Positions 8,888 to 62,530 are shown, numbered from the stretch's first letter. The stretch is DNA of 64,000 nucleotides from Anaerolineae bacterium (GCA_038198935.1 JBBPZQ010000021.1:289-64288); one strand, 5' to 3'. Numbers and translations: made by a program. The notes: generated from the letters alone by a model not told the origin.

Positions 8888-8922
8888 AATCGGCTATGTG
8901 CGATCAGCCATCGGCTATTCGC
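8888..8922. repeat. tandem heptamer array (5 units, NATNNGC)
   Basis: aatcggc tatgtgc gatcagc catcggc tattcgc. It overlaps the last codons and the stop of rplI. Confidence 0.6.
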
Positions 8923-9382
8923 TAACTTGCTCTTCGGGCGTGATGTTCACGTTCACCGTGGCGTTCACGTCGCTATGCAGGTGGATATTGACCTTGTGCT
9001 CGCCAACTTGCCTGAGCGGCTCCGCTAACTCGATTTTGCGCCGATCTACGTCCATGCCGAGTTTTTGCTGCAACGCATCGGCGATGTCTTGGCTCGTGAT
9101 CGAGCCATACAGACGGCCCTGCTCGCCAACCTTCGCCTTGAAATCGAGCATCGTCGCGTTCATCTTCTCCGCGAGCGCGCGTGCATCGGCAGAAAGTTTC
9201 GCGTTGCGCTTGGCGTTCGCCTTCCCCATGATCTCGACGTGGCGCATCGCGCCTTCAGTTGGCAGCATCGCCACGCCGCGTGGGAACAAATAGTTGCGCG
9301 CATAGCCGCGTGCCACGCGCTTCACTTCGCCCGCCTTGCCGAGACTGTTCACGTCCTGTGTCAACAATACTTTGATTTGCAC
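8915..9382 (-). CDS. rplI: 50S ribosomal protein L9
   Basis: VQIKVLLTQDVNSLGKAGEVKRVARGYARNYLFPRGVA is a typical L9 N-terminus. Start placed at GTG 9382 with a GGGAG RBS 6 nt upstream. The track start at 9463 adds 27 non-L9 residues. Confidence 0.9.
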   Translation of the reverse strand: MQIKVLLTQDVNSLGKAGEVKRVARGYARNYLFPRGVAMLPTEGAMRHVEIMGKANAKRNAKLSADARALAEKMNATMLDFKAKVGEQGRLYGSITSQDIADALQQKLGMDVDRRKIELAEPLRQVGEHKVNIHLHSDVNATVNVNITPEEQVSE

Positions 9383-9513
9383 GATTCGCTCCCGTGTTAG
9401 CAGTTGGAGATTGGATGAAGGTCGTCCAACATCTGCCATCTCATCGCAAATGAAATGCCGCACGAGCGCGGCAGTATTAGATGATACACGAGAACCCGTT
9501 ATTCACAAAACAT

Positions 9514-9555
9514 TTCCAACGCCGAACGTCCAACGTCCAATTTCCAACTTCCAAT
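9514..9555. repeat. tandem heptamer array (6 direct units, NNCCAA[CT])
   Basis: ttccaac gccgaac gtccaac gtccaat ttccaac ttccaat. Direct repeats only, with no inverted arm. Confidence 0.8.
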
Positions 9556-9570
9556 TCCGCATGTTATAAT
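9542..9570 (+). promoter_or_regulatory. extended -10 promoter for the lipoprotein gene
   Basis: TGTTATAAT at 9562-9570. A weak -35 (TTCCAA, 9542-9547) is supplied by the heptamer array, with a 17-nt spacer. Confidence 0.5.
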
Positions 9571-9597
9571 CGCGCGCACTCTGAGGGAGGTCATCGC

Positions 9598-10377: not shown

Positions 10378-10410
10378 AAAAAGCCGTCTCGCATCGAGAC
10401 GGCTTTTGTA
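10378..10410. terminator. bidirectional rho-independent terminator
   Basis: AAAAA-agccgtctcg-cat-cgagacggct-TTTTG between convergent genes. Confidence 0.8.
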
Positions 10411-11327: not shown

Positions 11328-11513
11328 TACCCTCTCCTCGGCTGCAAATCGCGCAAGGCTAGCACGAAAGCGCGTGAGTAGCAAATGGCGGATGGCGCAT
11401 GGCCGATGACAAATAGCCCGTGACCAACCGCGCGTAGCGGATTGCTGAAATTCCTGTGCAGATGGGATTCCGTGTGAACGAGACCTGAACGGAATACGCA
11501 CCACGCACGACGC

Positions 11514-11562
11514 CATCGGCTATCGGCTATCGGCCATTTGCTATTTGCTATCCGCTATCCGC
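11514..11562. repeat. tandem heptamer array (7 direct units, [CT]ATNNGC)
   Basis: catcggc tatcggc tatcggc catttgc tatttgc tatccgc tatccgc. It lies in the divergent promoter region. Confidence 0.85.
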
Positions 11563-11579
11563 AATGTTATAACTCGCCT

Positions 11580-15980: not shown

Positions 15981-16013
15981 AGACCCGCGAGGTCTCGGAG
16001 ACCTCGCGGGTCT
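15981..16013. terminator. perfect 16-bp palindromic hairpin
   Basis: agacccgcgaggtctc g gagacctcgcgggtct, between convergent genes. No clear U-run. Confidence 0.5.
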
Positions 16014-16056
16014 GCCCGCAACTGCCTATCTCCTGTACCGCTCAACCAAATTAAGA

Positions 16057-16091
16057 AAGCCCATCCAGAAGAGGATGGGCTTCGTTATTTT
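16057..16091. terminator. rho-independent terminator
   Basis: aaagcccatcc-agaaga-ggatgggcttc followed by GTTATTTT. Confidence 0.7.
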
Positions 16092-16106
16092 GCACGAACT
16101 TCGCGC

Positions 16107-17137: not shown

Positions 17138-20100
17138 TTATGGCCGGTATCCGTTCCACTGATACAACACAATCTGATCGCGCCCTTTGGCTTTAGCGCG
17201 ATACAACATGCGGTCAGCCAGATCAACCAAATGGTCGAGCGCGAGCGCGTGATCGGGGAACACGGCGATGCCTTGACTGACGGTCGGCTTCTCAATCGGC
17301 TGCTCGTCCTCGTCGCGCAGCGGGAATGCGGCGAGCGTCTCACGTATACGCTCGGCGACGAGCATGGCTTGCTCGGCTGTGGTGTTGGGCAGCGCGACGC
17401 CGAACTCTTCGCCGCCCCAACGGCCCACGATGTCGTCGCGCTTGATATTCTGGCGAATGGCTTGCGCCGCCGCTTGCAGCACGCGGTCGCCCATCACGTG
17501 ACCGTAGCGGTCATTGTACTGCTTGAAGTGATCAATGTCGAGCATGATGAGCGCGAGGTGGTGCTCACGCTGACGGCTGTTCACGACAGCGTCGCCCAGC
17601 GACTGCAAGAAGCAACCGTGATTGTAAACTTGCGTCAGACTATCGGTGCGCGCCTGATACTCGACGGCCGCGTGCAGCTCGGCATTGCTCATCGCCGCCG
17701 CCAGTTGATTGGCGAGCGTCTGCATGATCTGTGCGTCGTCGTCCGTGAACGCACCGCGCCGCCGCGCCTGTACGTCGAGCGCTCCCAGCACGCGCCCGGC
17801 GACGCGAATGGGCACGACCAACTCGGACTCGATCTCGTTCATGCGCGGGTGCGCGAAGTAGGCGGGATTGGCGCGCACGTTGTTTTCGAGAATCGGTCGC
17901 TGCTCCGCGAGCGACTTTCCCACTAGGCCCTGCTCGCCGATGCGCAGCACGAATCCCTCCGCGCCAGATAGATGAGGAGTGCCAGCACCGGCGGCCAGCC
18001 GCGCCGCGCCCTGCGGCTCGTCGCACAGAAAGATGTGCACCGCATCATAGTTGAAGCGCTCTTGGATCAGCGCCGCCGTATGCTCCAGCAAATCGTCCAG
18101 ATTCAACAGCGCGGTGATCTCGCTGCCGATCTGCGAGACCATCTTCATATATTGCGCGCGCCGCTGCTCATTTTCGTAGGCGCGCACATTGACGATGGCT
18201 TGCGCCGCCTGATCGGCGACGGTTTCGAGCGTGGTGATGTTATCCGCGCTGAACGCGTTCAGCACCGTCGCCGAGACCGCCAGCACGCCGAGCACCTGCT
18301 CGCCGTAGCGCAGCGGCACGCCGAGTTCGGAGCGAATGCCGCTGTGGACGCGATCTACGTAATACGGATCGGTCGTCACGTCCTGCGCGACATAAGTCTG
18401 GCCCGTGCGCGCAACCCATCCAACAATGCCGTCTTGCAGCGATTGCTCGTACTGCGGCGGCAGCTGATCAGCCAGCGAGCCGGCACACCCTTTCATCACC
18501 AGACAATCACCTTCGATCAGGAACGTCACCGCCAGATGATGTTCAGGTGATTCGACCACCGCCGACGCAATCGCCTGCGTGAGCGCGTTCAAGTTGTTGA
18601 TGCTCAGGATGCGGCGCGCCACACGATTGACCAGCAACAACTGTTGTCGTCCCTGCCGCTCACGCTCGTACAGCCGCGCATTCGCGACGGCTTGCGCGAC
18701 TTGATCGGCGACCGTGCCGAGCAGCACGACGTCGGACTCCGTGAACTGATTGGGCTGATTGCTGGCCGCGTCCAAGACGCCGATCACCTCGCCGCGCGAG
18801 ATCAGCGGCACGGCGATTTCGGATTGAATCCCGATCCCTTCGGGGTCAATGAACTCAGCATCCGTCGCGACCTCGTTAGTCAGACGCGGCGCACGGTTGC
18901 GCGCGACCCAGCCGATCACGCCTTCGCGGATAGATTGGCGATAGCCGAGCGTGGCGGACATCCCGCCGGCGACAGTTTGCAAGTGCAGCTCATCGGCTTC
19001 GATCGTGAACAGCGCGATGGTATGGTAATTTAATTGCGCGCGAATGAACTCGATCAATTCTGGCAGCAGCACTTTCAATTCGAGCGACGCAGCCGCGCGT
19101 TGGCCCACCTGGCTGATCACTTCTAGTTGCGCGCGGCTAATGCGCTCCGTTTCGACCAAGCGCGCGTTCTCGATGGCGAGCGCCGCCTGCCGAGCGAACA
19201 CTGCCAACAACTCACCGTCGCGCAAGCTGAACGGCGTACGGTCGGCGCGATTGGCGACGATGATAATGACGCCGAGCAAACCGTCGCGTCCGTGCATCGC
19301 CGCGCCCATGAAGTGTTGAGTCTTTAAGCGCAACGTGCGCGCGCGCAGTTTCGCGCTCAACTGTTCAGGCTCGTTGACGATCCAGAACGGCTTCATATTC
19401 GGGTCCCGCACCGACAGCGCGGTTTCGTCTAGTGCATACGAGTAGCCCCGCGCCTCCTCGTCCGGCAAGCCGAATGCCGGCAGTTGTGCGCGCATCTCGT
19501 TGCACTGCGCATCGTAGCGCAGGATCATCGCGCCGCGCGCGTTGAAGATAAGCGCGATGCGCTGTGTGACGTCGGCATACGTCGCGCGCACGTCGCCCAT
19601 TTTGGCGAAGGCTTGCGAGACCTCGTGCAGACCCTGCAACTCGAACGTGCGCTGCCGCTCCAATTCGCGCGAGCGTGCGCTCTGCAGTGCCGCCGCCAAC
19701 TGGGCGCACAGCGTCCCGACGAATTGCTCGTCGCGTTCGCTGAAAGCGTCCAGCTGCGTGCTCTCGATATTGAGCACGCCCAACAACTGCTCGTGCAGCA
19801 TGATAGGCAAACACAACTCCGAGCGGATGTCCACGCGGCCGCGATAGCGCCGCTCGGCGCGCACATCGCCGATCCGGACTGCCTCGCGGTGATTCAGCAC
19901 CCAACCGATCACGCCGTTCTGCTCATTCACGCCGACCTCGCGCAGCAACTTTGCTTCCAGTTCCGGCGAGACCAGCATGTGATCGCGGATCACGGCGAGC
20001 GGAGAGATGCGCGGCGGCTCGCCATTGTAGAGGATGACGCTCAACAGGTGCGCGCCCAGCACTTTGTCGCACGCGCTTAACGCGGCGACGCCCAGCAGAT

Positions 20101-22330: not shown

Positions 22331-22407
22331 CATGCGTGATACGTGATGCGTGATGCGTGACGCGAAATGCATGATGCGAAAATTACGGATTACGCATCAC
22401 GCACCAC
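22331..22407. repeat. heptamer-built hairpin (GATGCGT-type units / GCATCAC-type units)
   Basis: catgcgt gatacgt gatgcgt gatgcgt gacgcga ... ggattac gcatcac gcaccac. Immediately downstream of the ABC ATPase gene. Confidence 0.8.
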
Positions 22408-22433
22408 GCCGCAAAGTTGATCATGCATTCCGT

Positions 22434-47106: not shown

Positions 47107-47134
47107 CTTAAATTCATTGTAACACGAATCAACA

Positions 47135-48224: not shown

Positions 48225-48270
48225 AAACAAAAAGGCAGGGCGACGATCACAGCAGCGTCGCACCTGCCTT
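48225..48270 (-). terminator. rho-independent terminator of the small basic protein gene
   Basis: Stem aggcagg(g)cgacg / cgtcgc(a)cctgcct. The minus strand is followed by TTTTTGTTTCG. Confidence 0.7.
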
Positions 48271-48296
48271 TCATTAACTGCATTCCCAACACGAAC

Positions 48297-48437: not shown

Positions 48438-48604
48438 CTCACTCTCCTCTGGGGGTTTCAAATTGGAAAATTGAAGTCTGAAGAACCTGTTTGGTTAGCG
48501 ATTTCTTCGAGCCTTTGCTCGGCTTCAGCCTCGCGGCGCGCGTGGCGCACTGCTTGTTGGGATCGCCGCCGCGTTTGAGCGTCGTCGGTTTCTTGGCAGG
48601 CAGC

Positions 48605-49039
48605 TCATTCTCCGAGTTGATCGCCGCGCGGGCGATGCCGACGCGCGACGCGCACACGCACTTCGGCGCGGCGCAGTGCGATTTCGAGTGCAGCCATCTG
48701 CGCCGCATCGGATGGCGGCGTCTCGCGCAAGACTTCTGCGGCGCGTTGGCGCGCTTCTTCGGCACGCGCGACGTCAATCTCGTCGGCGTGCTCGGCGGTA
48801 TCGGCGAGGATCGTTACTTTATCGGGGCGCACCTCCATGAAGCCGCCACCAATGGCGACCAACTGATCGGGCAAGCCGCGCTTTTTGATGCGCAACTCGC
48901 CCGGCTTCAAGCCGGTCATCAACGGCGCATGGTGCGGCAAGATGCCGAGCATACCTTCGGTGCCCGGCGCGACGACCATATCCACGTCGTCAGAATAGAC
49001 TTGGCGTTCGACGGTTACGATGTCTAATCGGATGGGCAT
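48605..49039 (-). CDS. atpC: F1 ATP synthase epsilon subunit
   Basis: MPIRLDIVTVERQVYSDDVDMVVAPGTEGMLGILPHHAPL. Start at ATG 49039; the track extension reads through the heptamer repeat. Confidence 0.9.
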   Translation of the reverse strand: MPIRLDIVTVERQVYSDDVDMVVAPGTEGMLGILPHHAPLMTGLKPGELRIKKRGLPDQLVAIGGGFMEVRPDKVTILADTAEHADEIDVARAEEARQRAAEVLRETPPSDAAQMAALEIALRRAEVRVRVARRHRPRGDQLGE

Positions 49040-49046
49040 AAGGCTT

Positions 49047-49109
49047 CGTGACGGCGGACGGTGGACGAGAGACGACTTGCTGCCGTCCACCGTCCGTCGT
49101 CCACCGTCG
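49047..49109. repeat. heptamer-built hairpin (NNNGACG x4 / NNCGTCC x4)
   Basis: cgtgacg gcggacg gtggacg agagacg acttgct gccgtcc accgtcc gtcgtcc accgtcg. It fills the atpD-atpC spacer. Confidence 0.92.
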
Positions 49110-49111
49110 CA

Positions 49112-50614
<1,503 letters not shown>

Positions 50615-51022
50615 TCACATCAATTTCAATTTTGTGGCGCGCGGATCAACGTGAATCTCGTCATGTTCAAAATCGAGCGTAATGCGCCACTTCTGCATTG
50701 TCGTTGCGCCGATGATGACTGCTTCCGACAAATTCGGCACAATCATGAATTCATCAGTAAGGCGGACTTCATTCAAGTAGAAATCAAGTGTAACGCGATG
50801 CGTAATTCGCACATAGTGTTCTTCATCAGCTGTTTCTAGGTTGATCGGTCTTGGAAGCGGCACGGGTTGGTCAAGCGGACTCACTTCACTCGGATGAATG
50901 CATGAGTACGTCGCGCCACTGTCGAACAACGCTTGCAACTGCGCCTCGCCCTTCGAGCCTTCAAACCGAAGCGTGCGTTCGAGAATCATCTGCTTTCGCT
51001 TGTCGTGCACACTGACACTCAT
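50615..51022 (-). CDS. retropepsin-like (clan AA) aspartic protease-like protein
   Basis: 135 aa. Active-site-type motif LFDSGATYSCI and a distal IIGATTMQKW flap/dimer block. Markedly lower GC than the atp genes by eye. Lies between atpG and atpD on the same strand. Confidence 0.65.
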   Translation of the reverse strand: MSVSVHDKRKQMILERTLRFEGSKGEAQLQALFDSGATYSCIHPSEVSPLDQPVPLPRPINLETADEEHYVRITHRVTLDFYLNEVRLTDEFMIVPNLSEAVIIGATTMQKWRITLDFEHDEIHVDPRATKLKLM

Positions 51023-51032
51023 ACATTTTTCG

Positions 51033-51920
51033 CTAACTTCTATCCCGACTTTGCTTCAGCGCTTCCACGCCGCCGGTGATGTCGAGCATCTCGCGCGTGA
51101 TGGCGGCTTGCCGTACAGTGTTCAATGTCAGCGTATAACTGCTCACCAGATCTTTCGCGTTGTTGGTCGCGTTGCGCATCGCCATCATGCGCGCACTGTG
51201 CTCGCTGGCGAGCGATTCGAGCAAGCCTTGATATAACTGCGACTCGATCAAGCGCGGCATTAATTCTTCGAGCAGCGTCTCTTCGTCAGGTTCGTAGATG
51301 TAACTCGGATAGAACGTCGCGCCCCCAGTCTCTTCCGGATTCACCGGCTGCACGGGCAAGATTTGCCGCACGACGGGCCGCTGCTGCGATGGGCTGATGA
51401 AGTCCGTATAGCCGAGATAGACCGAGTCGAATTCGTGTTTCAGAAAGGCATCAATCACTAAGCGCGAGATGGGCGTGACCTTCGACAGTGGTGGATTGTC
51501 GCCCAAGCGCGTGAACTCGGCGACGATGCCGCCGCCGTAGCGCGCGAAGAAGTCGCGTCCCTTGCGCCCGACCGTAATCAAACCGAGCGGCTTCGTTTGC
51601 TGGCGCTTAAAGTTGTTCGCCGCGCGAATGATGTTCGCCACCATGCCGCCCGCCAGACCTTTGTCCGGCGTGATGATGACGAAGCCGACGCGCTGCACCT
51701 CGCGCTGTTCGAGCAGCGAGTGCGGCGCGCGTCCTTTCTGTGCCTGCCGCGCGAGGAACGATGCGATCTCCCACGCCTTCGTCGCGAAGGGGCGCGTTGC
51801 CAGCACTTGCGCCTGCGCGCGGCGCATCTTCGACGCGGAGACCGCTTCCATCGCGCGGGTCACTTGCGAAATATTTTTGACGCTCTTGATGCGGCGTCTG
51901 AGTTCACGAGGAGTAGCCAT
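51033..51920 (-). CDS. atpG: F1 ATP synthase gamma subunit
   Basis: MATPRELRRRIKSVKNISQVTRAMEAVSASKMRRAQ and C-terminal ITREMLDITGG. Confidence 0.95.
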   Translation of the reverse strand: MATPRELRRRIKSVKNISQVTRAMEAVSASKMRRAQAQVLATRPFATKAWEIASFLARQAQKGRAPHSLLEQREVQRVGFVIITPDKGLAGGMVANIIRAANNFKRQQTKPLGLITVGRKGRDFFARYGGGIVAEFTRLGDNPPLSKVTPISRLVIDAFLKHEFDSVYLGYTDFISPSQQRPVVRQILPVQPVNPEETGGATFYPSYIYEPDEETLLEELMPRLIESQLYQGLLESLASEHSARMMAMRNATNNAKDLVSSYTLTLNTVRQAAITREMLDITGGVEALKQSRDRS

Positions 51921-51941
51921 AGTTCAATGCGTGAGTTGCAA

Positions 51942-52382
51942 TTACGCTTTACGGATTGCACGATTGACGCGCTTAACTTTGCTGACTGATTGATCGGGGT
52001 GGGCGGGATTGGGCATCAGGCGTTGACCGCGCGCATCCACAAATAGGTCGAGCTTTCCCAAAATCGTCTGTCCGATCAACACTTCGTCACCCAACACCAA
52101 TGCTTCGTCGTTCGTGTGTCTGCCCATGATTTCGATGCTCACAGGCTCAGTCACGCCCACCGTTTCGAAGCGACCATCTGCATATTGCGCGACCTCCTGA
52201 TGCGGTTGCGCTAATCCGAGTTGTTCGACCACTAATGCGGGCAGCACCAGCCGCACCGCGCCCGTATCCACCAATGCCATCACATCCATCGCGCGCAGTT
52301 TGTCGGGCGCGAGTTGGTCGCGTCGCGCCAACATTTCATCCAGCGCGCTAGCAATTTTGACTTTGACTCGCACTTCGCCCAT
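51942..52382 (-). CDS. retropepsin-like (clan AA, AF_0612-type) aspartic protease-like protein
   Basis: About 146 aa from ATG 52382 (GAGGAGG RBS). MALVDTGAVRLVLP and VLIGQTILGKLDLFVD. Lies between atpA and atpG on the same strand. Confidence 0.65.
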   Translation of the reverse strand: MGEVRVKVKIASALDEMLARRDQLAPDKLRAMDVMALVDTGAVRLVLPALVVEQLGLAQPHQEVAQYADGRFETVGVTEPVSIEIMGRHTNDEALVLGDEVLIGQTILGKLDLFVDARGQRLMPNPAHPDQSVSKVKRVNRAIRKA

Positions 52383-52486
52383 TGGCTCGTCCTCCTCTGT
52401 CTCTACGACGCGCCAGTTGGGTCGTGCTTTCGATTTTACCTTGATTTTTGAAACGTGAGCACTTTTCACTTGACACCTGACACGAC

Positions 52487-54004
<1,518 letters not shown>

Positions 54005-54014
54005 ATTTCTCCTC

Positions 54015-54077
54015 TTACGACGACAGACGGCAGACGGCGGACGGCGATTCGCGGTCTGCCGTCTGCCGTCGAGCGTC
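54015..54077. repeat. heptamer-built hairpin (NNNNGAC x4 / NNNNGTC x4)
   Basis: ttacgac gacagac ggcagac ggcggac ggcgatt cgcggtc tgccgtc tgccgtc gagcgtc. It fills the atpH-atpA spacer. Confidence 0.9.
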
Positions 54078-54510
54078 ATCTCGCGCCCAACAACATTTCC
54101 TGCATGGCGTTCAGTCGGCTGGCGAGCGAGCCGTCAATGATCTTGTCGCCGACCTTCGCCACGATACCGCCCAGCAGCGACGGATCGGTGCGATACTCGA
54201 ACGTGAGGTCGCGCCCGAACTTCGCGCCCAACTTCTGCTCGATGGCGCGCCGCTCATCGGGCGTGAGCGCAACCGCGCTCGTAATCTGCGCCATGCTTTG
54301 GTCGCCGCCGCGCAGCATCTCGTCGAGTTGACGCAGCACGTCGCGCTGCAAGTTCGGGTCATGCGTCGCCTGCAACTGCTTGACCGTCTCGTTGTAAATG
54401 GCGTGCGCGACACTCGCCGAATCATGCTGGCTCGTCGTGCCGCGCCCTTCGACCGGAGTTTGCGAGCGCATGGTATCCGCGTTGGGCGGTTGGACTGGCT
54501 GGCTCATCAT
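54076..54510 (-). CDS. atpH: F1 ATP synthase delta (OSCP) subunit, short form with an atypical N-terminus
   Basis: C-terminal OSCP block [53 protein letters not shown]. The N-terminal ~70 aa are not OSCP-like. Confidence 0.75.
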
Positions 54511-55001
54511 GCCCTCTCGACTTCGTTCAGGAACTGCTGCACGAGCGCGCGATGCTTCGCGTCGTCCACGCCGCCGTTCGCCAGCACCTTGCGCGTGATC
54601 GCGAGCGACAAGTCCGCCACATCGCGCTGCAACTGCACCATCGCCTGCTTGCGCTCATATTCGGCGTCGGATAATGCTTTTGCTTTGATCTGCGTCGCCT
54701 CTTCGTTCGCCTTGTTGATGATTTCCTGACGAACTTTTTCGGCTTGCGCTGTCGCGCTCGTGACGGCTTGCTGACGTTCGCGGCGCTCGGCTTCGAGTTG
54801 CTGCTCGAATTTTGCGCGCTCCGCCGCCGCATCCTCGCGCACCTTCTCTGCGTTGGCCAGCGCGTTGGCGATGTCCTGCTTGCGCTTGTCCATCATAGCC
54901 AACAGCGGCTTGTACGCATAGCGCTGCAAGACGAACAGCACCACTAAGAAACTGATCAGCTGTGTCAGCAGCCATGGCAGGCTGACGCCAAGTTTATCCA
55001 T
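54507..55001 (-). CDS. atpF: Fo ATP synthase subunit b
   Basis: One TM (LLTQLISFLVVLFVL) followed by a long charged helix. Start at ATG 55001 with a GGAGGG RBS. Confidence 0.88.
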   Translation of the reverse strand: MDKLGVSLPWLLTQLISFLVVLFVLQRYAYKPLLAMMDKRKQDIANALANAEKVREDAAAERAKFEQQLEAERRERQQAVTSATAQAEKVRQEIINKANEEATQIKAKALSDAEYERKQAMVQLQRDVADLSLAITRKVLANGGVDDAKHRALVQQFLNEVERA

Positions 55002-55030
55002 CGAATCCCTCCGAGAGTGACGAGTGATAG

Positions 55031-55118
55031 GGATACAGGTAGGCAGGTACACGGGCAGACAAGCACGGTCAGTTGATTACCTGTGTACCTGTCTAACCGT
55101 GCACCGCTGTACCGATAA
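55031..55118. repeat. imperfect inverted repeat in the atpE-atpF spacer (weak 7-nt periodicity)
   Basis: acaggtaggcaggtaca ... ttacctgtgtacctgt. Less regular than the other elements. Confidence 0.45.
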
Positions 55119-55120
55119 CG

Positions 55121-55458
<338 letters not shown>

Positions 55459-55463
55459 ATTCT

Positions 55464-56462
55464 TTAATGATGTTCTTCTGCCGTGTGCGGCGCCGTCGTC
55501 GCCTGCGTCATGAATACGAGCGTCAGCACCGCGAACACAAATGCTTGAATCGCGCCGACCATCAGTTCGAGAAAGTAGAACGGCAAGGGTAGCAGCGGGA
55601 ACAGCACGAACATGACGAGCAGCAGCACTTCGCCTGCAAAAATGTTGCCGAACAGACGGAAGCTCAGTGAGATCAGTTTGGACACTTCCGAGATCGCTTC
55701 GAGGACGCCGACCAGCAAATCCAGAATGCCGAATCCGATGTTGCCTTTGCGCAATTTGTCGAGCACGATGTATTTGCTCAGGAACGTCCGCACGCCGAGG
55801 CTGCGGATACCGTACGCCTGCGTCATCACCCACGAAATGATGGCGAACGCGAGCGGGGTGTTGAAGTCCGAGGTCGGCGCGCGGAAGAACGGGAAGAATT
55901 CTGCCTTGTGTGGCTCAGTCGTTTCCGTCGCGGGCGCAGTCTCCGTCCCGCACTTGGACGGCACATGCGCCTCACACGGCACGTCGAACGCTTTGGGCAA
56001 GTCGAACAAAGCTACGACGCCAGCGGGCGGAACCTCGCGCTCATTCTCGAAATGCACGACGCCGATCGGTCCGAAGCCCGGCACCAAGCCGAGCAAATTA
56101 GCGACCAAGATGTATAAGAGGAACGTCATCACGAACGGGAAGAACCAGCGCACCAATTTCTCGTTGCCACCCGTCGTTTGCCGCACGAGGTTGCTGATTG
56201 TTTCGATGGCGATCTCGAACAGATTCTGCAAGCCGCTCGGAATGAGTTGGGGGTTGCGTCCGACCGCGAACGCGGCCAGCATCAGCAGCAGCGCGACGAA
56301 CCAACCCACCAGAATGGAGTTCGAGACGGCATAGCTGCCGATCATGAATACCGGCTCGGCGACGACGGACGGGCCAATGCGATCGGCCGGCAATAGCAGC
56401 TTGATGGCAAAGCCGATCAGTAGAAAAATTAGGATGGTTCCCCAAAGTCTAGGGTTTCTCAC
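55464..56462 (-). CDS. atpB: Fo ATP synthase subunit a (with a ~60-aa insertion)
   Basis: LSFRLFGNIFAGEVLL with the essential Arg. 332 aa, which I judge longer than usual. Confidence 0.92.
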   Translation of the reverse strand: MRNPRLWGTILIFLLIGFAIKLLLPADRIGPSVVAEPVFMIGSYAVSNSILVGWFVALLLMLAAFAVGRNPQLIPSGLQNLFEIAIETISNLVRQTTGGNEKLVRWFFPFVMTFLLYILVANLLGLVPGFGPIGVVHFENEREVPPAGVVALFDLPKAFDVPCEAHVPSKCGTETAPATETTEPHKAEFFPFFRAPTSDFNTPLAFAIISWVMTQAYGIRSLGVRTFLSKYIVLDKLRKGNIGFGILDLLVGVLEAISEVSKLISLSFRLFGNIFAGEVLLLVMFVLFPLLPLPFYFLELMVGAIQAFVFAVLTLVFMTQATTAPHTAEEHH

Positions 56463-56692
56463 GACTTCCCTCCACCCAGTTGGGCGTATGCGTCTTTCAC
56501 GATGCGATACACGGCGAGCGAGCCAATCGTCAGACCAATCGCCACGACAATCACGATTGCAATCGGTCCTAACTTAAACGTGCTACTAATCCAAATGCCA
56601 ATCAACAATGGCACCACAATCGAAGTGACGATGGCGAAACTCAACTGCGCCAGAATGCCCGCGCTGACAATGGTCGGCGGCTTGTTGCTCAT
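56459..56692 (-). CDS. atpZ: AtpZ/AtpI family small membrane protein
   Basis: 77 aa, two TM helices. First gene of the atp operon; its stop overlaps the atpB start. Confidence 0.7.
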   Translation of the reverse strand: MSNKPPTIVSAGILAQLSFAIVTSIVVPLLIGIWISSTFKLGPIAIVIVVAIGLTIGSLAVYRIVKDAYAQLGGGKS

Positions 56693-56695
56693 AAC

Positions 56696-56748
56696 TTAGA
56701 CGGCGCACAGTGGACGACGGACGGTGGTCTGCCGTCTGCCGCCTGTGG
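56696..56748. repeat. heptamer-built hairpin (NNGGACG / GCCGTCT units)
   Basis: ttagacg gcgcaca gtggacg acggacg gtggtct gccgtct gccgcct. It fills the nuoN-atpZ spacer. Confidence 0.8.
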
Positions 56749-58218
56749 TCAACTCTTGAAGATTGCCTTGACCGATTCTTGGGCAAACGTGATGAACGGC
56801 TGCGGCACGATACCCATCAGCAGCGTCATCGCCGTCGCGAACGCGAGCGACACGTTCAGCGTCGGCGTAACGCGCACCGGCGTCATCTCTTTCGGCGGCA
56901 TGAAGAACATGTAGCGCACGATGTTGAAGTAGTAGCCGACCGAGACGACACTGTTGACGGCGCCGATGATGGCAAGCCAGATTAGCAGTTGACTAGGCCC
57001 GCCCGCCTTCGCCGCGTCGAGCGCCGCGCCGAACACCAGAAACTTGCCGATGAAGCCCGCCGTCGGCGGAATGCCGGCCAGCGACAGGAAGAAGATCACC
57101 ATCGCGAGCGCGAGCGCCGGCGCGCGGCGAACCATACCGGCATAGTCGGCAATCTCGTCCGAGTGGATCGCGTTCGAGTATGCGATGACCGCGATGAACA
57201 GGCCGAGGTTGGTGAAGATGTACGCGATCAGGTAAACCAAAATGCCGCGCAAGCCTTCACCCGTCGCGACGTTCGCGACGATGCCGATCAGCATATAGCC
57301 CGTCTGCGCGATGGACGAGTACGCGAGCAGGCGCTTGATGTTCGTCTGGCGCAGCGCGACCAGATTGCCAAGCGTCATGCTGATGGCGGCGATTGCCCAC
57401 AGCAGGTTCGTCCAGTCGGATGCAAAGTGCGGCAGTGCGGTAATCATCACGCGCGCGAGCACGGCGAAGCCGGCCACTTTTGGACCGACCGAGATGAATG
57501 CAGTTACGGGCGTCGGCGCGCCTTCGTATGCTTCAGGCGACCACTGATGGAACGGCGCGAGCGCAATCTTAAAACCGAAGCCGACGATGGTCAGGATGAT
57601 CGCGATGACTATCAAGTTGCTGGTGCCGGCAGGTGCGTTGGCGAACGCTGCCGCGATGCGCACGAGGTTCGTCTCGCCGTTGCTCGCGCCGTACAGCAGC
57701 GACATGCCGTACAGCATGATGGCTGACGCGACCGAGCCATACAAGAAATACTTGATCGAGCCTTCGGACGATTTCACGTCGTCGCGTAAGTAGCCGACCA
57801 TGATGTACGACGTGATGCTCAGGAACTCGAACGACAGGAAGATCATGATCAGGTCAATCGAGCCTGCGAGCAATATGATCGAAAGCGTGACGAACAGGAG
57901 CAGTGCGTAGAACTCGGCAACGTACTTCGTGCGCTGTTCGACGTACTCTTTGGACGCGAACACGATCAGCGCAGCGATAACGAGCGAGGCGATGCGAAAG
58001 AACGACAGGAACTCGTCCACCGTGTATGTGTTGCCGAACACATTCTGCCGCGCGTAGAAATACCACGCCGCGTCGGCGATGCCGAGCACGAGCGCGAGCA
58101 GCGTCAGCCATGGTGCCCACGTCCGCCCCGCGCGATCCGACACGAGGTCCACCGTTAGCACCAGCATTGCGGCGGCGGTCACGATGATTTCAGGACCGAG
58201 GAGGAGGAGTTGATCCAT
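56749..58218 (-). CDS. nuoN: NADH-quinone oxidoreductase subunit N
   Basis: MDQLLLLGPEIIVTAAAMLVLTVDL and the antiporter-like fold. Start at ATG 58218; the track extension (MAACNQPSNQQTNQRIL) is encoded by the heptamer hairpin. Confidence 0.9.
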   Translation of the reverse strand: MDQLLLLGPEIIVTAAAMLVLTVDLVSDRAGRTWAPWLTLLALVLGIADAAWYFYARQNVFGNTYTVDEFLSFFRIASLVIAALIVFASKEYVEQRTKYVAEFYALLLFVTLSIILLAGSIDLIMIFLSFEFLSITSYIMVGYLRDDVKSSEGSIKYFLYGSVASAIMLYGMSLLYGASNGETNLVRIAAAFANAPAGTSNLIVIAIILTIVGFGFKIALAPFHQWSPEAYEGAPTPVTAFISVGPKVAGFAVLARVMITALPHFASDWTNLLWAIAAISMTLGNLVALRQTNIKRLLAYSSIAQTGYMLIGIVANVATGEGLRGILVYLIAYIFTNLGLFIAVIAYSNAIHSDEIADYAGMVRRAPALALAMVIFFLSLAGIPPTAGFIGKFLVFGAALDAAKAGGPSQLLIWLAIIGAVNSVVSVGYYFNIVRYMFFMPPKEMTPVRVTPTLNVSLAFATAMTLLMGIVPQPFITFAQESVKAIFKS

Positions 58219-58222
58219 AAGT

Positions 58223-58288
58223 ATTCGTTGGTTGGTTTGCTGGTTTGATGGTTGGTTACAAGCAGCCAACCATCAAACCAGCAAACTT
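58223..58288. repeat. heptamer-built near-perfect hairpin
   Basis: attcgtt ggttggt ttgctgg tttgatg gttggtt acaagca gccaacc atcaaac cagcaaa. It fills the nuoM-nuoN spacer. Confidence 0.9.
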
Positions 58289-58291
58289 ACT

Positions 58292-59872
58292 TCATCCCAT
58301 CAAATTGATGATACTCACCGCAGCGCCGTTGATGATGTCAATAATCGGCTTCGGGTACAAGCCGATCAGAATCATGAACACGGCGAGCGGTACCATCGAG
58401 ACGACTTCCCACGGTGTCATATCTTTCATGCGCCCCGTCGCACGTTCCCAATACTCCGCGACTACTTGCGGTGTCAGGTGATGTTCCATCTCGGAATATT
58501 TTTCTTGATCGAGCGGACCGAGGAACACCATCTGAATAATTTTCCACAGGATGAACGCCGCCGTGATGACGATGCCGAGCACGCCGATGGCAGCCAGGCC
58601 TGGGATGATGGCGAACGCCCCGCGAAAGATCATAAACTCCGAGACGAAGCCGGCCAGCGCAGGCAAACCGAGCGACGCGAACGCAGTCAGCATCATCAAG
58701 CCGTAATAGCGTGGCACGGCCGCTGCCAATCCGCCGAACGCATCCACGCGCCGTGTGTGCGCGCGCTCGTACAACATGCCGACGAGCAGGAACAAGCCGC
58801 CGGTGATGATGCCGTGATTGAACATCTGCAAGACCGCGCCGTTCAGCGCAATCGCGCGCGCGTCGGCGATACCGGGCGCGGTATTGCCGACCGCAATCGC
58901 AGCCGCGCCGATACCGAGCATCGTGTAGCCCATGTGGTTAACCGACGAGTACGCAATCAATCGCTTGAGGTCGGTCTGCGCCATCGAGACGAACGCGCCA
59001 TACACGATGCTGATCACAGCCAGCACCGCAATGATCATGCCTGCATAACTGGCGAGCACGCCGGGAAAGACCGGCATGAGGATGCGAATGAAACCGTATG
59101 CGCCCAACTTCAACAGCACGCCGGCCAGAATAACAGAGCCGGCCGTCGGCGCGGCGGTGTGCGCGTCGGGCAGCCACGTGTGGAAGGGCCACATCGGCAC
59201 TTTGATGGCGAACGCGGCGAAGATGCCCCAGAACGCCAGATTGAGCACGAGCGGATCGGTGACTGCTTTGATTTTCAACGGCAACAGCAAGAGATCGAAT
59301 GTGCCTGTCTGGAAATAGAGTCCGAGAATTGCCAGCAGCATCAGTACCGAGCCGATCAAGGTGTAGATGAAGAACTTCAGCGCGGAATACTGCGGGCGGT
59401 CTTCAGCGTGGCCCCAAATGCCGATCAGGAAGTACATCGGCACGAGTCCGATTTCCCAGAAGATGTAGAACAGGAAGAAGTCGAGCGAGCAGAAGACGCC
59501 CAACATGCCCGTCTCGAGTAAGAGGAAGAGCGCGAAGTATTCCTTCACGCGATTGTTAATCACATACGATGAGTAGAAGAGCGCGATCACGGTGAGCAGC
59601 GTCGTGAGGAAGACCATCGGCACACTCACGCCGTCCACGCCAAGATGGTAGTTGATGTTCAGCGTCGGGATCCACGGTGCTACTTCTTCCTGCTGCATCG
59701 TGCCATTCGGCGTAAAGCCGAACCACAGCAGCACCGACAGCACCAGCGGCACGAGACTGACCAGAATCGCCCAGCGTTTGATGAGCGACTCGCTGCGCAT
59801 GAACAAAATCGGCAGCGTGCCGAGGATGGTCGGGATGAAGATGATGTACGTGAGCAGGTATGGAATATACAT
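58292..59872 (-). CDS. nuoM: NADH-quinone oxidoreductase subunit M
   Basis: 526-aa antiporter-like subunit. FYIFWEIGLVPMYFLIGIWG, WLPDAHTAAPTAGSVILAG. Confidence 0.92.
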   Translation of the reverse strand: MYIPYLLTYIIFIPTILGTLPILFMRSESLIKRWAILVSLVPLVLSVLLWFGFTPNGTMQQEEVAPWIPTLNINYHLGVDGVSVPMVFLTTLLTVIALFYSSYVINNRVKEYFALFLLLETGMLGVFCSLDFFLFYIFWEIGLVPMYFLIGIWGHAEDRPQYSALKFFIYTLIGSVLMLLAILGLYFQTGTFDLLLLPLKIKAVTDPLVLNLAFWGIFAAFAIKVPMWPFHTWLPDAHTAAPTAGSVILAGVLLKLGAYGFIRILMPVFPGVLASYAGMIIAVLAVISIVYGAFVSMAQTDLKRLIAYSSVNHMGYTMLGIGAAAIAVGNTAPGIADARAIALNGAVLQMFNHGIITGGLFLLVGMLYERAHTRRVDAFGGLAAAVPRYYGLMMLTAFASLGLPALAGFVSEFMIFRGAFAIIPGLAAIGVLGIVITAAFILWKIIQMVFLGPLDQEKYSEMEHHLTPQVVAEYWERATGRMKDMTPWEVVSMVPLAVFMILIGLYPKPIIDIINGAAVSIINLMG

Positions 59873-59957
59873 TACGACTCCAGCACGGTACTCAGCCGTT
59901 CACCCTGCGCTACAGCCATTCGGCTGTCCGCACGCGATTGCGTGCAGCGCAGAGCAT

Positions 59958-60013
59958 GTCGCCGGTAGCCAGATCGTTCACATGCTGGCGACTGACGACT
60001 GACGACTGGCTAC
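59958..60013. repeat. heptamer array CTGNCGA x4 with a partial upstream inverted partner
   Basis: gtcgccggtagccag ... ctggcga ctgacga ctgacga ctggcta. It overlaps the nuoL stop codon. Confidence 0.65.
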
Positions 60014-62349
60014 TTCTCTATTGGCCTCGGTGGTTCCTCTTTGGTCGCGCGCGAGAACACGTACGCACCCACGCCGAACAGTCCAAGGATCACAAGGGCA
60101 AACAGCATCAATTCAATATTGCCGCTCATGATACGATAGCCCGCGAGCGCGATGACGGCGAGCACGACGACGAGCATATAGTTCTGCGTGTGGCCCGTCT
60201 GGATGCCGCGCAGCAGTTGTCCGCCGCGCACCGACAGTTTGCCCGCGCCGTTGACCAGACCTTCGATCACGAGCGTATCGAAGTAGTCGCGCAGATCGAG
60301 CGCAATCGCGCGCCCCGCTTCGCCGACGGTATTCACGCTGCCATCAATGATGTCGTGGTCGAAGCGCGACGACACATTTGCAATCGCATAGGTCAGCGCG
60401 ACGAACGTGCGCTGATACAATTCGTCAATGTACCATTTGTTCTTCAGGAAGTGATAGCCCGGCATCCGCGCCAGCGGGTCGGGTGCGCCCACGCGCAAGC
60501 CGCGATAGATCACGAAGCCCAATCCGAGTCCAAGCACCGCAGCCGCCGTCGAGATGCCCGCGACGACGAGGTTGAACGGCGTCGCCTCAAAGTCTGCCAC
60601 GCCCTTGATTTCACTCGACTCGAACACCGTCGCAATCATGCGATGCAGGAAGCCGCCGAGCGGAGCGGGTACGACGTTCTCAGGCAAGTTCATCGCGCCG
60701 AGCACCAGCGTAAACAGCGCGAGCACGATGAGCGGCAACGTCATCGTGAGCGGCGATTCTTTGGCGGCTGCTGATGCTTCGTGGCGCGCCCTGCCGAAGA
60801 ACGTCAGCGCAATCTGTCGTCCCGTGTAGAACGCCGTCAGGAACGCGGCGATGGTGCCGAGCAGCCACACGAAGAACGGCAGACTGAGCGCGCCCTGCGT
60901 CGTGAATTGCTCGAAAGCGTGCGCGAGAATTTCGTCTTTGCTCCAGAAGCCCGCCAGCGGGAAGATGCCGGCCAGCGCGAGCGCGCCGATAATAAACGTC
61001 CAGCCCGTCTGCGGCATGCGGCTCAGCAGCCCGCCCATATTCAGCATATCGTTCGGGTCGAACGGCGCGGGATGCGGCTGCGGCGGATTCGGCTCGTGGC
61101 CTGCGGGCAGAATCTCTGCCTTGTGCTGGTCCGCTTCGTGACCCAATGCGGGATGCGCGGTGTGCTTGCGCTGCGCTTCGCTCTGGCGCTCGGCCGTGTG
61201 GCTGGTGTGTCCCGCTTCGGCGAGGTGATGCCCGCGCTCCATGCCGATGATGACCGAGCCTGAGCCCATGAACAAGAGCGCCTTGAAGAACGCGTGCGTC
61301 AGCAGGTGGAAGATCGCCGCTATGAATCCACCCACGCCCAGCGCCATCACCATATAGCCGAGTTGCGAGATCGTCGAGTACGCCAGCACGCGCTTGATGT
61401 CGTTTTGCGCAACGGCGATGGTGGACGCGAACAACGCCGTGAACGCGCCAAGCGCGCCGACGACCAGCAGCGGTGTCGAGCCTTCCAGTCCGCTCGCAGC
61501 GAAGATGGGCATCATGCGCGCGATCAGATAAACACCCGCCGCCACCATTGTCGCCGCGTGAATGAGCGCGGAGACAGGTGTTGGACCTTCCATCGCGTCG
61601 GGCAGCCAGACGTGCAGCGGGAACTGCGCGCTCTTGCCGACCGCGCCGCCGAAGATGAGCAGCGCAATCAGTGTGGCGGCGCTCATGCCAAAGATGGTCG
61701 CCGTCGTCAGTTTGCTCAATACGTCGGGTTTGAAGATTTCAGGAAACGTGAGTGTACTCGTCTGACTGTAGAGGAAGAGCATGCCCATGAACAGCAGCAC
61801 GTCGCCGATGCGCGTCGTCAGGAACGCTTTCTTGGCCGCGTTCATCGCGCTGGGTTTCTCGAACCAGAAGCCGATCAGCAGGTATGAGCATAAGCCCATG
61901 ATTTCCCACGCGACGAACAGCACGAACAAATTATTCGCCACCACCAGCGTCAACATGCCTGCGGCGAACAGCGAGATGTAGGCAAAGAAGCGTGAGTAGC
62001 GCGGGTCGGTGTGCAGGTCGGGCGGGTTCATGTAGCCGCGCGCGTAGATGAAAATCAGCAAGCACACGAACGGCACCATGAACAGCATCGCCGCCGTGAA
62101 GCCATCCACCATGAAGCCAATGTCAAACCTGCTCCTGCCCATCGGAATCCATTCAAAGGGAACGTTGCGAAACTTGTCGCCGCCTAGCACCTGCGCGACG
62201 ATGAGCCACGACAGAATCCACGACAGCCCGATAGCGAGGATAGCAATGGATGAACTCAGTTGTTTATTCGGATTGGTGAAAAAAACGATCAGCGCAAACG
62301 CGAGGAGCGGGAATAGAGGAACGAGATACGCCAGACTCATGAAGTCCAT
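60010..62349 (-). CDS. nuoL: NADH-quinone oxidoreductase subunit L (with a His-rich insertion)
   Basis: Start at ATG 62349 with a GGAGGAG RBS. WEIMGLCSYLLIGFW, WLPDAMEGPTPVSALIHAATMV. C-terminal lateral helix region. Confidence 0.92.
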   Translation of the reverse strand: MDFMSLAYLVPLFPLLAFALIVFFTNPNKQLSSSIAILAIGLSWILSWLIVAQVLGGDKFRNVPFEWIPMGRSRFDIGFMVDGFTAAMLFMVPFVCLLIFIYARGYMNPPDLHTDPRYSRFFAYISLFAAGMLTLVVANNLFVLFVAWEIMGLCSYLLIGFWFEKPSAMNAAKKAFLTTRIGDVLLFMGMLFLYSQTSTLTFPEIFKPDVLSKLTTATIFGMSAATLIALLIFGGAVGKSAQFPLHVWLPDAMEGPTPVSALIHAATMVAAGVYLIARMMPIFAASGLEGSTPLLVVGALGAFTALFASTIAVAQNDIKRVLAYSTISQLGYMVMALGVGGFIAAIFHLLTHAFFKALLFMGSGSVIIGMERGHHLAEAGHTSHTAERQSEAQRKHTAHPALGHEADQHKAEILPAGHEPNPPQPHPAPFDPNDMLNMGGLLSRMPQTGWTFIIGALALAGIFPLAGFWSKDEILAHAFEQFTTQGALSLPFFVWLLGTIAAFLTAFYTGRQIALTFFGRARHEASAAAKESPLTMTLPLIVLALFTLVLGAMNLPENVVPAPLGGFLHRMIATVFESSEIKGVADFEATPFNLVVAGISTAAAVLGLGLGFVIYRGLRVGAPDPLARMPGYHFLKNKWYIDELYQRTFVALTYAIANVSSRFDHDIIDGSVNTVGEAGRAIALDLRDYFDTLVIEGLVNGAGKLSVRGGQLLRGIQTGHTQNYMLVVVLAVIALAGYRIMSGNIELMLFALVILGLFGVGAYVFSRATKEEPPRPIEK

Positions 62350-62429
62350 TACGGTGACTCCTCCGACACCACACTGACGAGTGGAACAAAGCGCGACATG
62401 AGTAGAGACAATATGACCGCAAGGCAAGC

Positions 62430-62530
62430 GAAAGCCGCGCCCTCAATTAGTCGTTCGTTATTCGTTGTTAGTCGCTAGTCACTTACGGCCCATCGCTAAT
62501 GACGAATGACTAATTGAGGGCGCGGCTTTC
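62430..62530. repeat. GC-clamped long hairpin with heptamer-built arms
   Basis: Clamp gaaagccgcgccctca / tgagggcgcggctttc encloses attagtc gttcgtt attcgtt gttagtc gctagtc ... gctaatg acgaatg actaatt. Confidence 0.85.

Follow-up and report, generated by a model that had tools for sequence, protein, structure and literature searches.

The STRR1-3 repeats of Calothrix and Anabaena are said to consist of the units CCCCAGT, TTGGTCA and CAACAGT. Nostoc heptamers include TTGTCAG, ACTGACT and ATTGCGA (PMC2408588), and STRR hairpins of 7-bp repeats have been described in the hupS-hupL gap, where transcript stability or translational coupling was proposed (PMC2670836). TAACTGA direct repeats are known from Beggiatoaceae, Cyanobacteria and Bacteroidetes (MacGregor 2015, PMC4679880), and indels between strains change these arrays in 7-nt steps (PMC4679880). 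Xanthomonas carries GGGAATC heptamers and Nostoc GGGGAYT heptamers (Rehm 2015, PMC4692102). In general, intergenic heptamer repeats are over-represented in many prokaryotes (PMC4692102; bioRxiv 10.1101/309039), and among the periodic repeats of intergenic DNA in prokaryotes, heptamers rank first in abundance, with no accepted function (bioRxiv 10.1101/309039).

The 64-kb stretch of DNA analyzed here (the window) carries elements of the STRR repeat class in another phylum; the kind itself is already known. STRR hosts are heterocystous cyanobacteria, whereas the host here belongs to the Chloroflexota (Anaerolineae), has 60% GC, and has Anaerolineae MAGs as its nearest relatives. The arrays hold 3–7 imperfect 7-nt (occasionally 8-nt) units, and opposite an array there usually lies an inverted one made of the complementary unit. 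The STRR-like reading made in an initial annotation of this DNA is upheld by the tandem 7-nt units, their dispersal over many intergenic loci, and the few unit families per genome. Additionally, inverted arrays fold into hairpins within operons in both systems. The Nostoc units resemble GTCAGTC and ACTGACG of the window and CTGACTACTGAC of the syntenic locus L002, which matches a Nostoc PCC 7120 repeat over 12 nt. With the STRR1-3 units given above, there is no identity and only a partial resemblance, in an ACTG/CAGT core. The hairpin form is not new, since STRR hairpins have already been reported (PMC2670836), but hairpins are the rule here and the exception in STRR, and octamer variants occur here.

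The TAACTGA repeats are similar in being intergenic heptamer arrays (2–6 copies in TAACTGA sets), in their nACTGAT-type units, and perhaps in having “forward” arrays a few nucleotides from start codons that often lack an SD. Two exact TAACTGA units are present in locus L033, and no TAACTGA array was found in the window. Beggiatoa uses one dominant unit, with 1 of 170 sets inverted, whereas many units, mostly in inverted pairs, are used here. The heptamers of Xanthomonas and Nostoc are likewise intergenic SSRs that vary in length and sequence between relatives at the same spacers, and some form convergent inverted pairs and potential stem-loops. However, they contain quadruplex-capable G-tracts, while the units here are not quadruplex-prone and have about one minor-kind G or C each (exactly one in 67% of units against a background of 43%). 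The initial annotation was aware of no equivalent description for a Chloroflexota genome. No paper describing these elements in that phylum was found in the literature, but in a 2014 survey table the median 7n3-pattern score of Chloroflexi was already positive, which marks heptamer repeats as over-represented (PMC4060949). The window extends the known STRR puzzle of filamentous cyanobacteria to the Chloroflexota, as an unusually dense, hairpin-dominated heptamer example in a phylum with no prior description of such repeats.

A self-match scan with a threshold of 14 of 16 matches yielded 13 period-7 arrays in the window, against 0–4 at the other periods from 4 to 14 and a mean of 0.02 period-7 arrays in the shuffled window (50 dinucleotide shuffles). 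When a strict test (12/14 matches) was applied to 37 intergenic spacers (5,025 nt), shuffled spacer by spacer, 11 were positive at period 7 and the shuffles gave 0.02; one spacer was positive at period 8 and none at the remaining periods. The expected enrichment over shuffled intergenic controls is thus present in the window. Of the roughly 37 spacers that measure 45 nt or more, 19 contain arrays, around half of the intergenic gaps, which agrees with the earlier count of about 20. The elements are restricted to non-coding DNA, and the array density in the pooled loci is 4.3 per 10 kb in non-coding DNA and 0.15 in coding DNA, a 28-fold excess. An assembly artefact is excluded because the independent Logan assemblies of two runs (SRR24807095, SRR19962011) show 100% identity over nine elements.

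Four recurrent unit families account for 15 of the 19 elements, and the remainder are singletons. Members of Fam1 (GACTAAC/GACTGAC) lie at 25686, 36440, 44529, 59985 and 62446, those of Fam2 (GCCATC/GCTATC) at 8888, 11385–11565 and 50536, those of Fam3 (CACGCAT) at 22332, 24453 and 35338, and those of Fam4 (GACGGCA) at 49047, 54019 and 56699. The elements, together with one promoter-like site, are as follows.

E1, 8888–8925, no strand assigned: weak Fam2 array (ATCGGCT/GCCATCGGCTAT) in a convergent spacer, directly past a classical terminator; z -2.1.
E2, 9512–9556, + strand: direct array of TCCAACG x ~6, no hairpin; z +0.8.
E3, 11385–11565, no strand assigned: Fam2 arrays in a divergent spacer, with ATGGCGG x3.4 at 11385–11408 and inverse arrays (ATCGGCT, ATTTGCT, ATCCGCT) at 11511–11565 that terminate at TGTTATAAC.
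E4, 22332–22409, - strand: Fam3 hairpin, ATGCGTG x6.7 with a CACGCAT arm, in the gap between an ABC ATPase gene and a GAF-GGDEF gene; dG -39, z -4.5.
E5, 24453–24510, - strand: Fam3 array and weak hairpin with an ABC permease gene on either side, its 3' arm 4 nt upstream of an ATG with no SD; z -0.9.
E6, 25686–25759, - strand: Fam1 hairpin of 32 bp, TCAGTCG x4.6 / CTGACGA x4.4, spanning from 3 nt past the stop to 3 nt short of the ATG, no SD; dG -56.9, z -11.4.
E8, 35315–35365, no strand assigned: Fam3 hairpin, CGTAATG x3.9, in a divergent spacer, of the opposite, C-first chirality; z -3.9.
E9, 36440–36513, + strand: Fam1 hairpin, GTCGTCA.. / CTAACGA.., its 3' end 1 nt upstream of an ATG with no SD; dG -35.8, z -5.3.
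E10, 43181–43251, - strand: hairpin of GAGTGCT x4 / ACTCAGC x4 with several folding registers, in the obg-nadD gap; dG -44.5, z -9.1.
E11, 44529–44716, no strand assigned: two inverted Fam1 arrays (44529–44561 and 44684–44716) in the divergent obg/rex spacer, 135 nt apart and enclosing a separately structured core.
E12, 49047–49109, no strand assigned: Fam4 hairpin, GGACGGT / CCGTCCA, in the convergent spacer past atpD; dG -43.7, z -5.1.
E13, 50535–50611, - strand: Fam2 hairpin, ATGGCTG x3.9, after which comes atpD's SD, GAGGAGG; z -5.2.
E14, 54015–54077, - strand: Fam4 hairpin, GACGGCA x3.9 / GTCTGCC, in the atpH-atpA gap, its stem overlapping the atpH stop codon and the SD lying 3' of the stem; dG -42.2, z -5.0.
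E15, 55035–55100, - strand: period-8 hairpin of the ACAGGTAC type in the atpE-atpF gap; z -5.3.
E16, 55403–55458, - strand: AT-rich heptamer hairpin, ATTTTTG/TTTGATT, in the atpB-atpE gap; z -6.4.
E17, 56696–56748, - strand: Fam4 array and weak hairpin in the gap from nuoN to a 77-aa ORF, no SD; z -1.8.
E18, 58223–58288, - strand: period-8 hairpin (GTTTGNTG) in the nuoM-nuoN gap, whose 21-bp stem is perfect; z -7.6.
E19, 59945–60014, - strand: Fam1 array, CTGACGA x3.4, in the nuoL-nuoM gap, whose partner arm is degenerate; z -2.0.
E20, 62430–62532, - strand: long hairpin where the nuoL mRNA is predicted to have its 5' end, combining a 25-bp outer stem free of repeats with an imperfect heptamer core of Fam1; dG -58.8, z -9.4.
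Promoter-like site, 62543–62572, - strand: TTGGCA-18-TATAAT, TG-extended, 11/12, directly upstream of E20.

The unit sequences cited earlier read as described, and the AT-rich version (E16) was borne out. Two generalizations had to be narrowed. The elements had been called mostly arm-loop-arm hairpins; 12 of the 18 folded regions form strong stem-loops (z -3.9 to -11.4 against 200 shuffles, of which 0–1 were equally stable), but four give weak hairpins (24446–24510, 56690–56748, 59945–60012, 8880–8935) and two are direct arrays with no structure (9505–9570, 11505–11575). A constant 7-nt period had also been stated. It applies to most elements, but 58223–58288 and 55035–55100 have period 8. Among the cited sites, TRF returned period 7 except at 58223–58288 and 62446–62515, and the latter holds an imperfect heptamer core only, inside the longer hairpin of E20. 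The hairpins are chiral: the G-rich arm lies 5' in 26 cases against 4, on either strand. The antisense strand has the better dG in seven elements and the sense strand in four, and G·U-compatible mismatches show no excess on the sense strand (4 vs 9). This lack of a sense-strand advantage leaves selection at the RNA level conjectural.

Members of one family have a common order of unit variants over up to 31 nt, as seen for E9/E11 (31 nt, 90%), E5/E8 (23 nt, 96%), E6/E19 (24 nt, 96%) and E12/E17 (18 nt, 100%). The similarity is limited to the unit families, and the loops and flanks are unrelated. Copying between loci fits this shared order better than purely local slippage. The unit had been thought to differ from locus to locus. 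There are indeed at least seven unrelated unit sequences in the window, plus period-8 variants, but most elements fall into the four families, and because these share unit order, the contrast drawn with sequence-conserving repeat families is weakened. The elements are not copies of a single IS remnant.

The stem-loops that REP/BIME/REPIN sequences form in mRNA stabilize the upstream cistron. These sequences resemble the present elements as dispersed intergenic imperfect palindromes within operons, but REPs have a conserved 20–40 nt sequence, a RAYT partner and no internal periodicity, whereas it is the period that is conserved here. This assignment was rejected as no 20–40 nt palindrome is common to all copies. 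CRISPR was likewise rejected, the units being contiguous and 7–8 nt long, as opposed to 24–48 nt repeats with unique spacers. As for MITEs, inspection of the borders of two elements, E6 and E9, a weak test, found no conserved ends or target-site duplications. At the gathering score, Rfam matched only 16S rRNA and one tRNA.

The placement of the elements relative to genes is regular. Without exception, the 12 co-directional spacers have a stem whose start lies at -3 to +7 nt relative to the stop codon upstream and whose end lies 0–36 nt ahead of the next start. Of the 12 genes downstream, six carry an SD immediately 3' of the stem and six carry none; for five of the latter (starts 24444, 25683, 36514, 56692, 58218), 0–12 nt separate the start codon from the foot of the stem. 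Where stems of -40 to -57 kcal/mol abut SD-less start codons, they cannot be neutral for translation. Elsewhere, E20 starts about 4 nt downstream of the predicted transcription start, the promoter-like site TTTCCA-18-TGnTATAAT (9541–9570) has its -35 overlapped by E2, and both E2 and E3 are situated over promoter DNA. Array density is similar in divergent and convergent spacers. For this reason, given also the two arrays in promoter DNA, a single function cannot cover all elements. The suggested role as terminators or attenuators found no support: none of the heptamer hairpins in 43000–62600 was flagged as a terminator, only E12 has a T-rich tail (+ strand), and ordinary A-tract/stem/T-tract terminators are present elsewhere in the genome. 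Intrinsic termination, for which a GC-rich stem with a T-tract behind it is required, was rejected.

The elements are best read, with a probability of about 50% and from sequence evidence, as slippage-driven repeat palindromes that may act as intercistronic or 5'-UTR RNA stem-loops. Slipped-strand mispairing would make the arrays grow and shrink, given a bias toward heptamers in this lineage like that known in other phyla, and the complementarity of the arms would be maintained by selection or by templated repair inside the palindrome. Transcribed arrays would form 20–35 bp stem-loops within operon mRNAs and at one 5' end, and stop and start codons would thereby come to lie close to each other. 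By terminating at the 5' foot, a ribosome could melt the stem and expose the start site buried at the 3' foot; such melting would amount to translational coupling, as in E. coli atpHA. The stem-loops might also shield neighbouring cistrons from exonucleases or supply double-strand processing sites. Against this reading, the stop-to-start geometry could arise if arrays just expanded until they met essential signals. For the atpHA mRNA of E. coli, a hairpin in the atpH-atpA gap reportedly keeps the atpA start region occluded until the upstream cistron has been translated (Rex et al. 1994). E14 is located at exactly this junction, but it is a repeat array and its E. coli counterpart a unique sequence, and coupling is suggested by analogy.

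The trait is lineage-wide in the Chloroflexota, whose loci contain 75 arrays in 745 kb compared with 1 in 540 kb for other phyla. The orthologous atpG/atpD spacers of about 17 species carry YACTGAT, YACCGAT or ACTGTTC arrays right before the SD, in blocks of identical neighbouring units, as slippage predicts. In Anaerolineae and Caldilineales, elements persist at orthologous spacers, while their unit sequence and copy number (2–17 per arm, varying continuously) turn over. They are kept at the same spacers in genomes with only 50–71% AtpG identity, and the arms co-vary from CAGT/ACTG to CGGT/ACCG (rho 0.79, p 8e-4, n 14). The change of units under a persisting element, suggested earlier as a check, was seen, with both arms changing together. 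Between the window and L002, elements occur at nearly all syntenic spacers in both, and E16 has a related element in the orthologous spacer. Units are unrelated at several other orthologous spacers, and the same unit families appear at different spacers. Three regularities can be tested: stems span the distance from the stop codon upstream to the start site downstream, the G-rich arm comes first and gives hairpins a chirality that holds on either strand, and arms co-vary across species with no G·U signature. If cyanobacterial STRRs follow the same rules, the old question of the reason for a 7-nt period and of the repeats' role would be narrowed.

A neutral or selfish by-product is a rather unlikely account. 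A lineage-specific mutational bias (heptamer slippage and fold-back copying) would litter tolerant non-coding DNA with hairpins that have no selected function, and positions would persist as existing arrays mutate in place. The similar density in all spacer classes, the lack of G·U or strand asymmetry, and the unrelated units at several window/L002 orthologous spacers are consistent with this, as are the many relatives with short, plain atpG/atpD spacers and the heptamer excess in many prokaryotes with no known role (PMC4692102; bioRxiv 10.1101/309039; PMC4060949). However, the chirality bias, the covariation of the arms across species, the retention at the same spacers despite AtpG divergence, and the strong stems at SD-less starts all speak against it.

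It is improbable that the elements are protein-binding arrays, in which each 7-nt unit would be the site of a heptad-reading nucleic-acid-binding protein and the inverted array would act as an antagonist or supply another set of half-sites. An RNA reader could belong to the cold-shock-domain or S1 type, following the proposal made for the TAACTGA repeats, and a candidate DNA reader is an omega-type ribbon-helix-helix protein. Beside the start codon, the array is in most cases of the “forward” (C>G) type, like TAACTGA in Beggiatoaceae, and similar units recur across phyla, including the exact TAACTGA units of L033 and the Nostoc repeat in L002. The constrained unit composition and the position of E2 and E3 over promoter elements also agree with binding. 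On the other hand, a sequence-specific reader is at odds with the unrelated units and period-8 variants within 64 kb, no protein emerged as a candidate, and arrays with no partner arm are only 11 forward against 6 reverse.

More doubtful still is that the hairpins are the footprint of a dedicated cross-phylum system that both generates and uses the arrays and is exchanged among filamentous mat-forming bacteria. Such a system could be a heptad-reading RNA/DNA-binding protein or a specialized slippage/fold-back repair activity, and Cyanobacteria, Beggiatoaceae, some Bacteroidetes and Anaerolineae would take part in it. If this were true, G-first chirality and stop-to-start geometry would reflect programmed cistron-by-cistron translation control.

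Miniature mobile elements of the REPIN/MITE type, with a transposase encoded elsewhere and a secondary heptamer sub-structure, are very unlikely: dispersed copies share unit-variant order, and the same families occupy different spacers in the window and L002, but E6 and E9 lack mobile-element borders, loops and flanks are unrelated, per-arm copy number is continuous, elements persist at orthologous sites, and the 64-kb window contains no transposase or RAYT (Y1 transposase) gene.

In practical terms, these elements will cause short-read assemblies to break and start codons to be mispredicted. Several longest ORFs in the window extend into the arrays.

The initial annotation had reported about 20 spacers with tandem arrays; 19 of the roughly 37 spacers in the window that are 45 nt or longer were counted, and their sequences agree with its description. 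The spacers without arrays contain ordinary features, among them classical A-tract/stem/T-tract terminators. It had also proposed a comparison with shuffled controls, and the excess of period 7 is confirmed within the window. When 37 intergenic spacers (5,025 nt in total) were each shuffled on their own, period 7 was passed by 11 spacers, period 8 by one and the other periods by none, with the shuffles giving 0.02. A self-match scan of the window found 13 period-7 arrays vs. 0–4 for each other period from 4 to 14, and window dinucleotide shuffles contained 0.02 on average. Tandem Repeats Finder reported period-7 arrays at every position named in the annotation except 58223-58288 and 62446-62515. 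The period had been described as constant; period 7 is indeed dominant, but the elements at 55035-55100 and 58223-58288 repeat every 8 nt. The hairpin architecture stands for most of the folded regions: 12 of 18 were far more stable than their shuffles (dG -21 to -59 kcal/mol, z -3.9 to -11.4), while the others comprise four weak hairpins and two unstructured direct arrays. An assembly artefact is ruled out because the independent Logan assemblies of two public sequencing runs, SRR24807095 and SRR19962011, agree over nine elements with 100% identity. When 7-nt indels between strains were sought, the Logan contigs with NadD and AtpE were 100% identical to the window, and an AtpA scan of metagenomes for close strains gave a best match of only 72% identity. 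No Rfam family matched the repeat elements, the sole matches in the window being a 16S fragment and one tRNA.

The host is an Anaerolineae-type Chloroflexota whose nearest species representative is a MAG (AtpG 71% identical). The main genes and ORFs considered here are as follows:

1-756, minus strand: 5' half of a 16S rRNA gene, at the window edge
17138-22282, minus strand: protein of 1,714 aa, encoded downstream of hairpin E4, that has a C-terminal GGDEF domain in addition to about eight GAF domains
33941-34026, plus strand: the single tRNA gene in the window
49112-62349, minus strand: nuoL-M-N, a 77-aa ORF and atpB-E-F-H-A-G-D with two inserted ORFs
50615-51022 and 51942-52382, minus strand: aspartyl-protease-like ORFs (weak PF13975/PF13650/PF00077 matches)
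62750-63409, plus strand: PIN-domain ORF (63005-63409) and the preceding 84-aa ORF

Elements also occur inside an ABC-transporter operon, in the gap separating obg from nadD, and in spacers flanked by divergent or convergent genes. Where neighbouring genes are co-directional (12 spacers), the main stem invariably begins at -3 to +7 nt relative to the stop codon of the upstream gene, and 0–36 nt separate its end from the following start codon. A GGAG-type Shine-Dalgarno (SD) site is found directly past the stem in six of the 12 downstream genes, and the other six have none. Five of these SD-less genes (starts 24444, 25683, 36514, 56692 and 58218) have their start codon 0–12 nt from the stem foot. 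Automatic start-codon prediction will be misled by the repeat hairpins. Several longest-ORF calls on the minus strand are spurious or reach into arrays (55077-55448, 49112-50611, 52487-54079 and 56749-58269); the true atpE is 55121-55381, in a different frame from the first of these.

A terminator role, which the initial annotation had raised as one option, was rejected for lack of T-tails: no T-tract was flagged after the heptamer hairpins in a check of 43000-62600. The organism has conventional terminators, separate from the repeat hairpins, and two promoter-like sites adjoin or overlap elements:

40422-40457, 10380-10407, 8858-8890, 15981-16013, 16047-16092 and 45464-45492: classical intrinsic terminators, several bidirectional (A-tract/stem/T-tract)
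62543-62572, minus strand: strong extended -10 promoter-like site that would make the long hairpin E20 the 5'-terminal part of the nuoL-atp transcript
9541-9570, plus strand: strong extended -10 promoter-like site with its -35 within the direct TCCAACG array E2

The transcription start that the former site (62572-62543) predicts lies about 4 nt upstream of E20.

The arrays are not confined to the window. Around atpG, 75 period-7 arrays were found in 745 kb of Chloroflexota (45 loci plus the window) vs. one in 540 kb of other phyla (36 loci). Their density per 10 kb is 4.3 in non-coding vs. 0.15 in coding DNA, and they are present in co-directional, divergent and convergent spacers. Period 7 is also dominant in unclassified metagenome loci around atpA (24 arrays vs. 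1–5 for other periods). In the orthologous atpG|atpD spacers of about 17 species, arrays of 2–17 units per arm stand directly upstream of a GGAGGA SD site, with identical units grouped in adjacent blocks. The 3'-arm units are YACTGAT, YACCGAT, ACTGTTC or GACTAnn, and the 5' arm is their complement; in the remaining species the spacer is short and plain or holds an ordinary hairpin. The two arms covary between CAGT/ACTG and CGGT/ACCG (Spearman 0.79, p 8e-4, n = 14, uncorrected for phylogeny). The identity of units across species was discarded as a sign of constraint, being confounded by orthology. The closest relative (locus L002) is syntenic with the window and has elements in nearly all common spacers. 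Between the two, the units show no relationship at nuoM|N, nuoN|orf77 and atpE|F or in the spacer that follows atpD; related units are found at nuoL|M and atpB|E and in the spacer preceding obg.

The label "STRR-like" proves apt and the finding real: the elements belong to a kind that is already known and is itself unexplained. For STRR hairpins, stability or translational coupling has been put forward as a role (PMC2670836). Nostoc PCC 7120 has dispersed TTGTCAG, ACTGACT and ATTGCGA repeats (PMC2408588), to one of which L002 has a 12-nt match. In Beggiatoaceae, Cyanobacteria and Bacteroidetes, TAACTGA repeats are found directly upstream of SD-less start codons and are oriented forward, with a single inverted set among 170 (PMC4679880); exact units are present in another compared locus (L033), and the window holds no TAACTGA arrays. 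The GGGAATC repeats of Xanthomonas include inverted pairs (PMC4692102). A 2014 survey table gives the 7n3 pattern a Chloroflexi median score of +1 (PMC4060949), and our literature search found no paper on such elements in Chloroflexota.

The most likely account, with a probability of about one half, combines three steps. Slippage would generate the arrays, these would be retained as inverted pairs, and the transcribed arrays would fold into intercistronic or 5'-terminal stem-loops. Such stem-loops may couple or insulate neighbouring cistrons in translation, and may also protect the mRNA or take part in its processing. Selection at the RNA level was not demonstrated, because neither dG nor G·U-compatible mismatches (4 vs. 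9) favoured the sense strand; selection via G·U pairs was rejected on both tests. A neutral mutational by-product is possible, if doubtful.

Of 34 clean hairpins from the window and relatives' loci (among them window 43184-43251 and L032 19981-20095), 26 have G>C in the 5' arm, four have C>G and four are tied. This chirality is seen for either strand and every spacer class, and once the atpG|atpD orthologues are collapsed, the ratio is about 18 to 4. Restated, the array adjoining a start codon has C>G in the sense of that gene. The palindrome is the same on both strands, and therefore every transcript reaches the G-rich arm first. The bias was dropped as a marker of transcription direction, since a strand-independent chirality cannot tell which strand matters. 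Partner-less arrays are oriented 11 forward and 6 reverse relative to genes, a weak trend with crude gene calls. That the arrays are sites for a heptad-reading protein appears unlikely.

The unit sequence had been said to differ between loci; an all-against-all comparison showed instead that units recur in four families, {8888, 11385-11565, 50536}, {22332, 24453, 35338}, {25686, 36440, 44529, 59985, 62446} and {49047, 54019, 56699}, leaving singletons at 43181, 55403 and 9512 and the two octamer elements. Members of a family have the same order of non-identical units over 18–31 nt, which looks like copying between loci and would suit miniature mobile elements, but an origin as such elements is very improbable, as loops and flanks are unrelated and the window holds no transposase or RAYT gene.

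Several minor observations were made. The inverted arrays of E11, located in the divergent obg|rex spacer, are separated by a 135-nt "loop" (44562-44683) with a strongly paired GC-rich core of its own; this loop has no Rfam match and could be promoter DNA, a nested element or a small RNA. A 350-nt hairpin with about 17 units per arm (dG -173 kcal/mol) precedes atpD in the locus of one relative (L034 10864-11214), and a metagenome contig (L102) carries two arrays longer than 100 nt, with GCAATCT arrays exceeding 20 units. The two small retropepsin-like ORFs split the ATP synthase operon (atpA-asp-atpG-asp-atpD), while L002 lacks them at those spots and has repeat hairpins in the spacers instead. 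The 84-aa and PIN-domain ORFs are probably a VapBC-type toxin-antitoxin pair.
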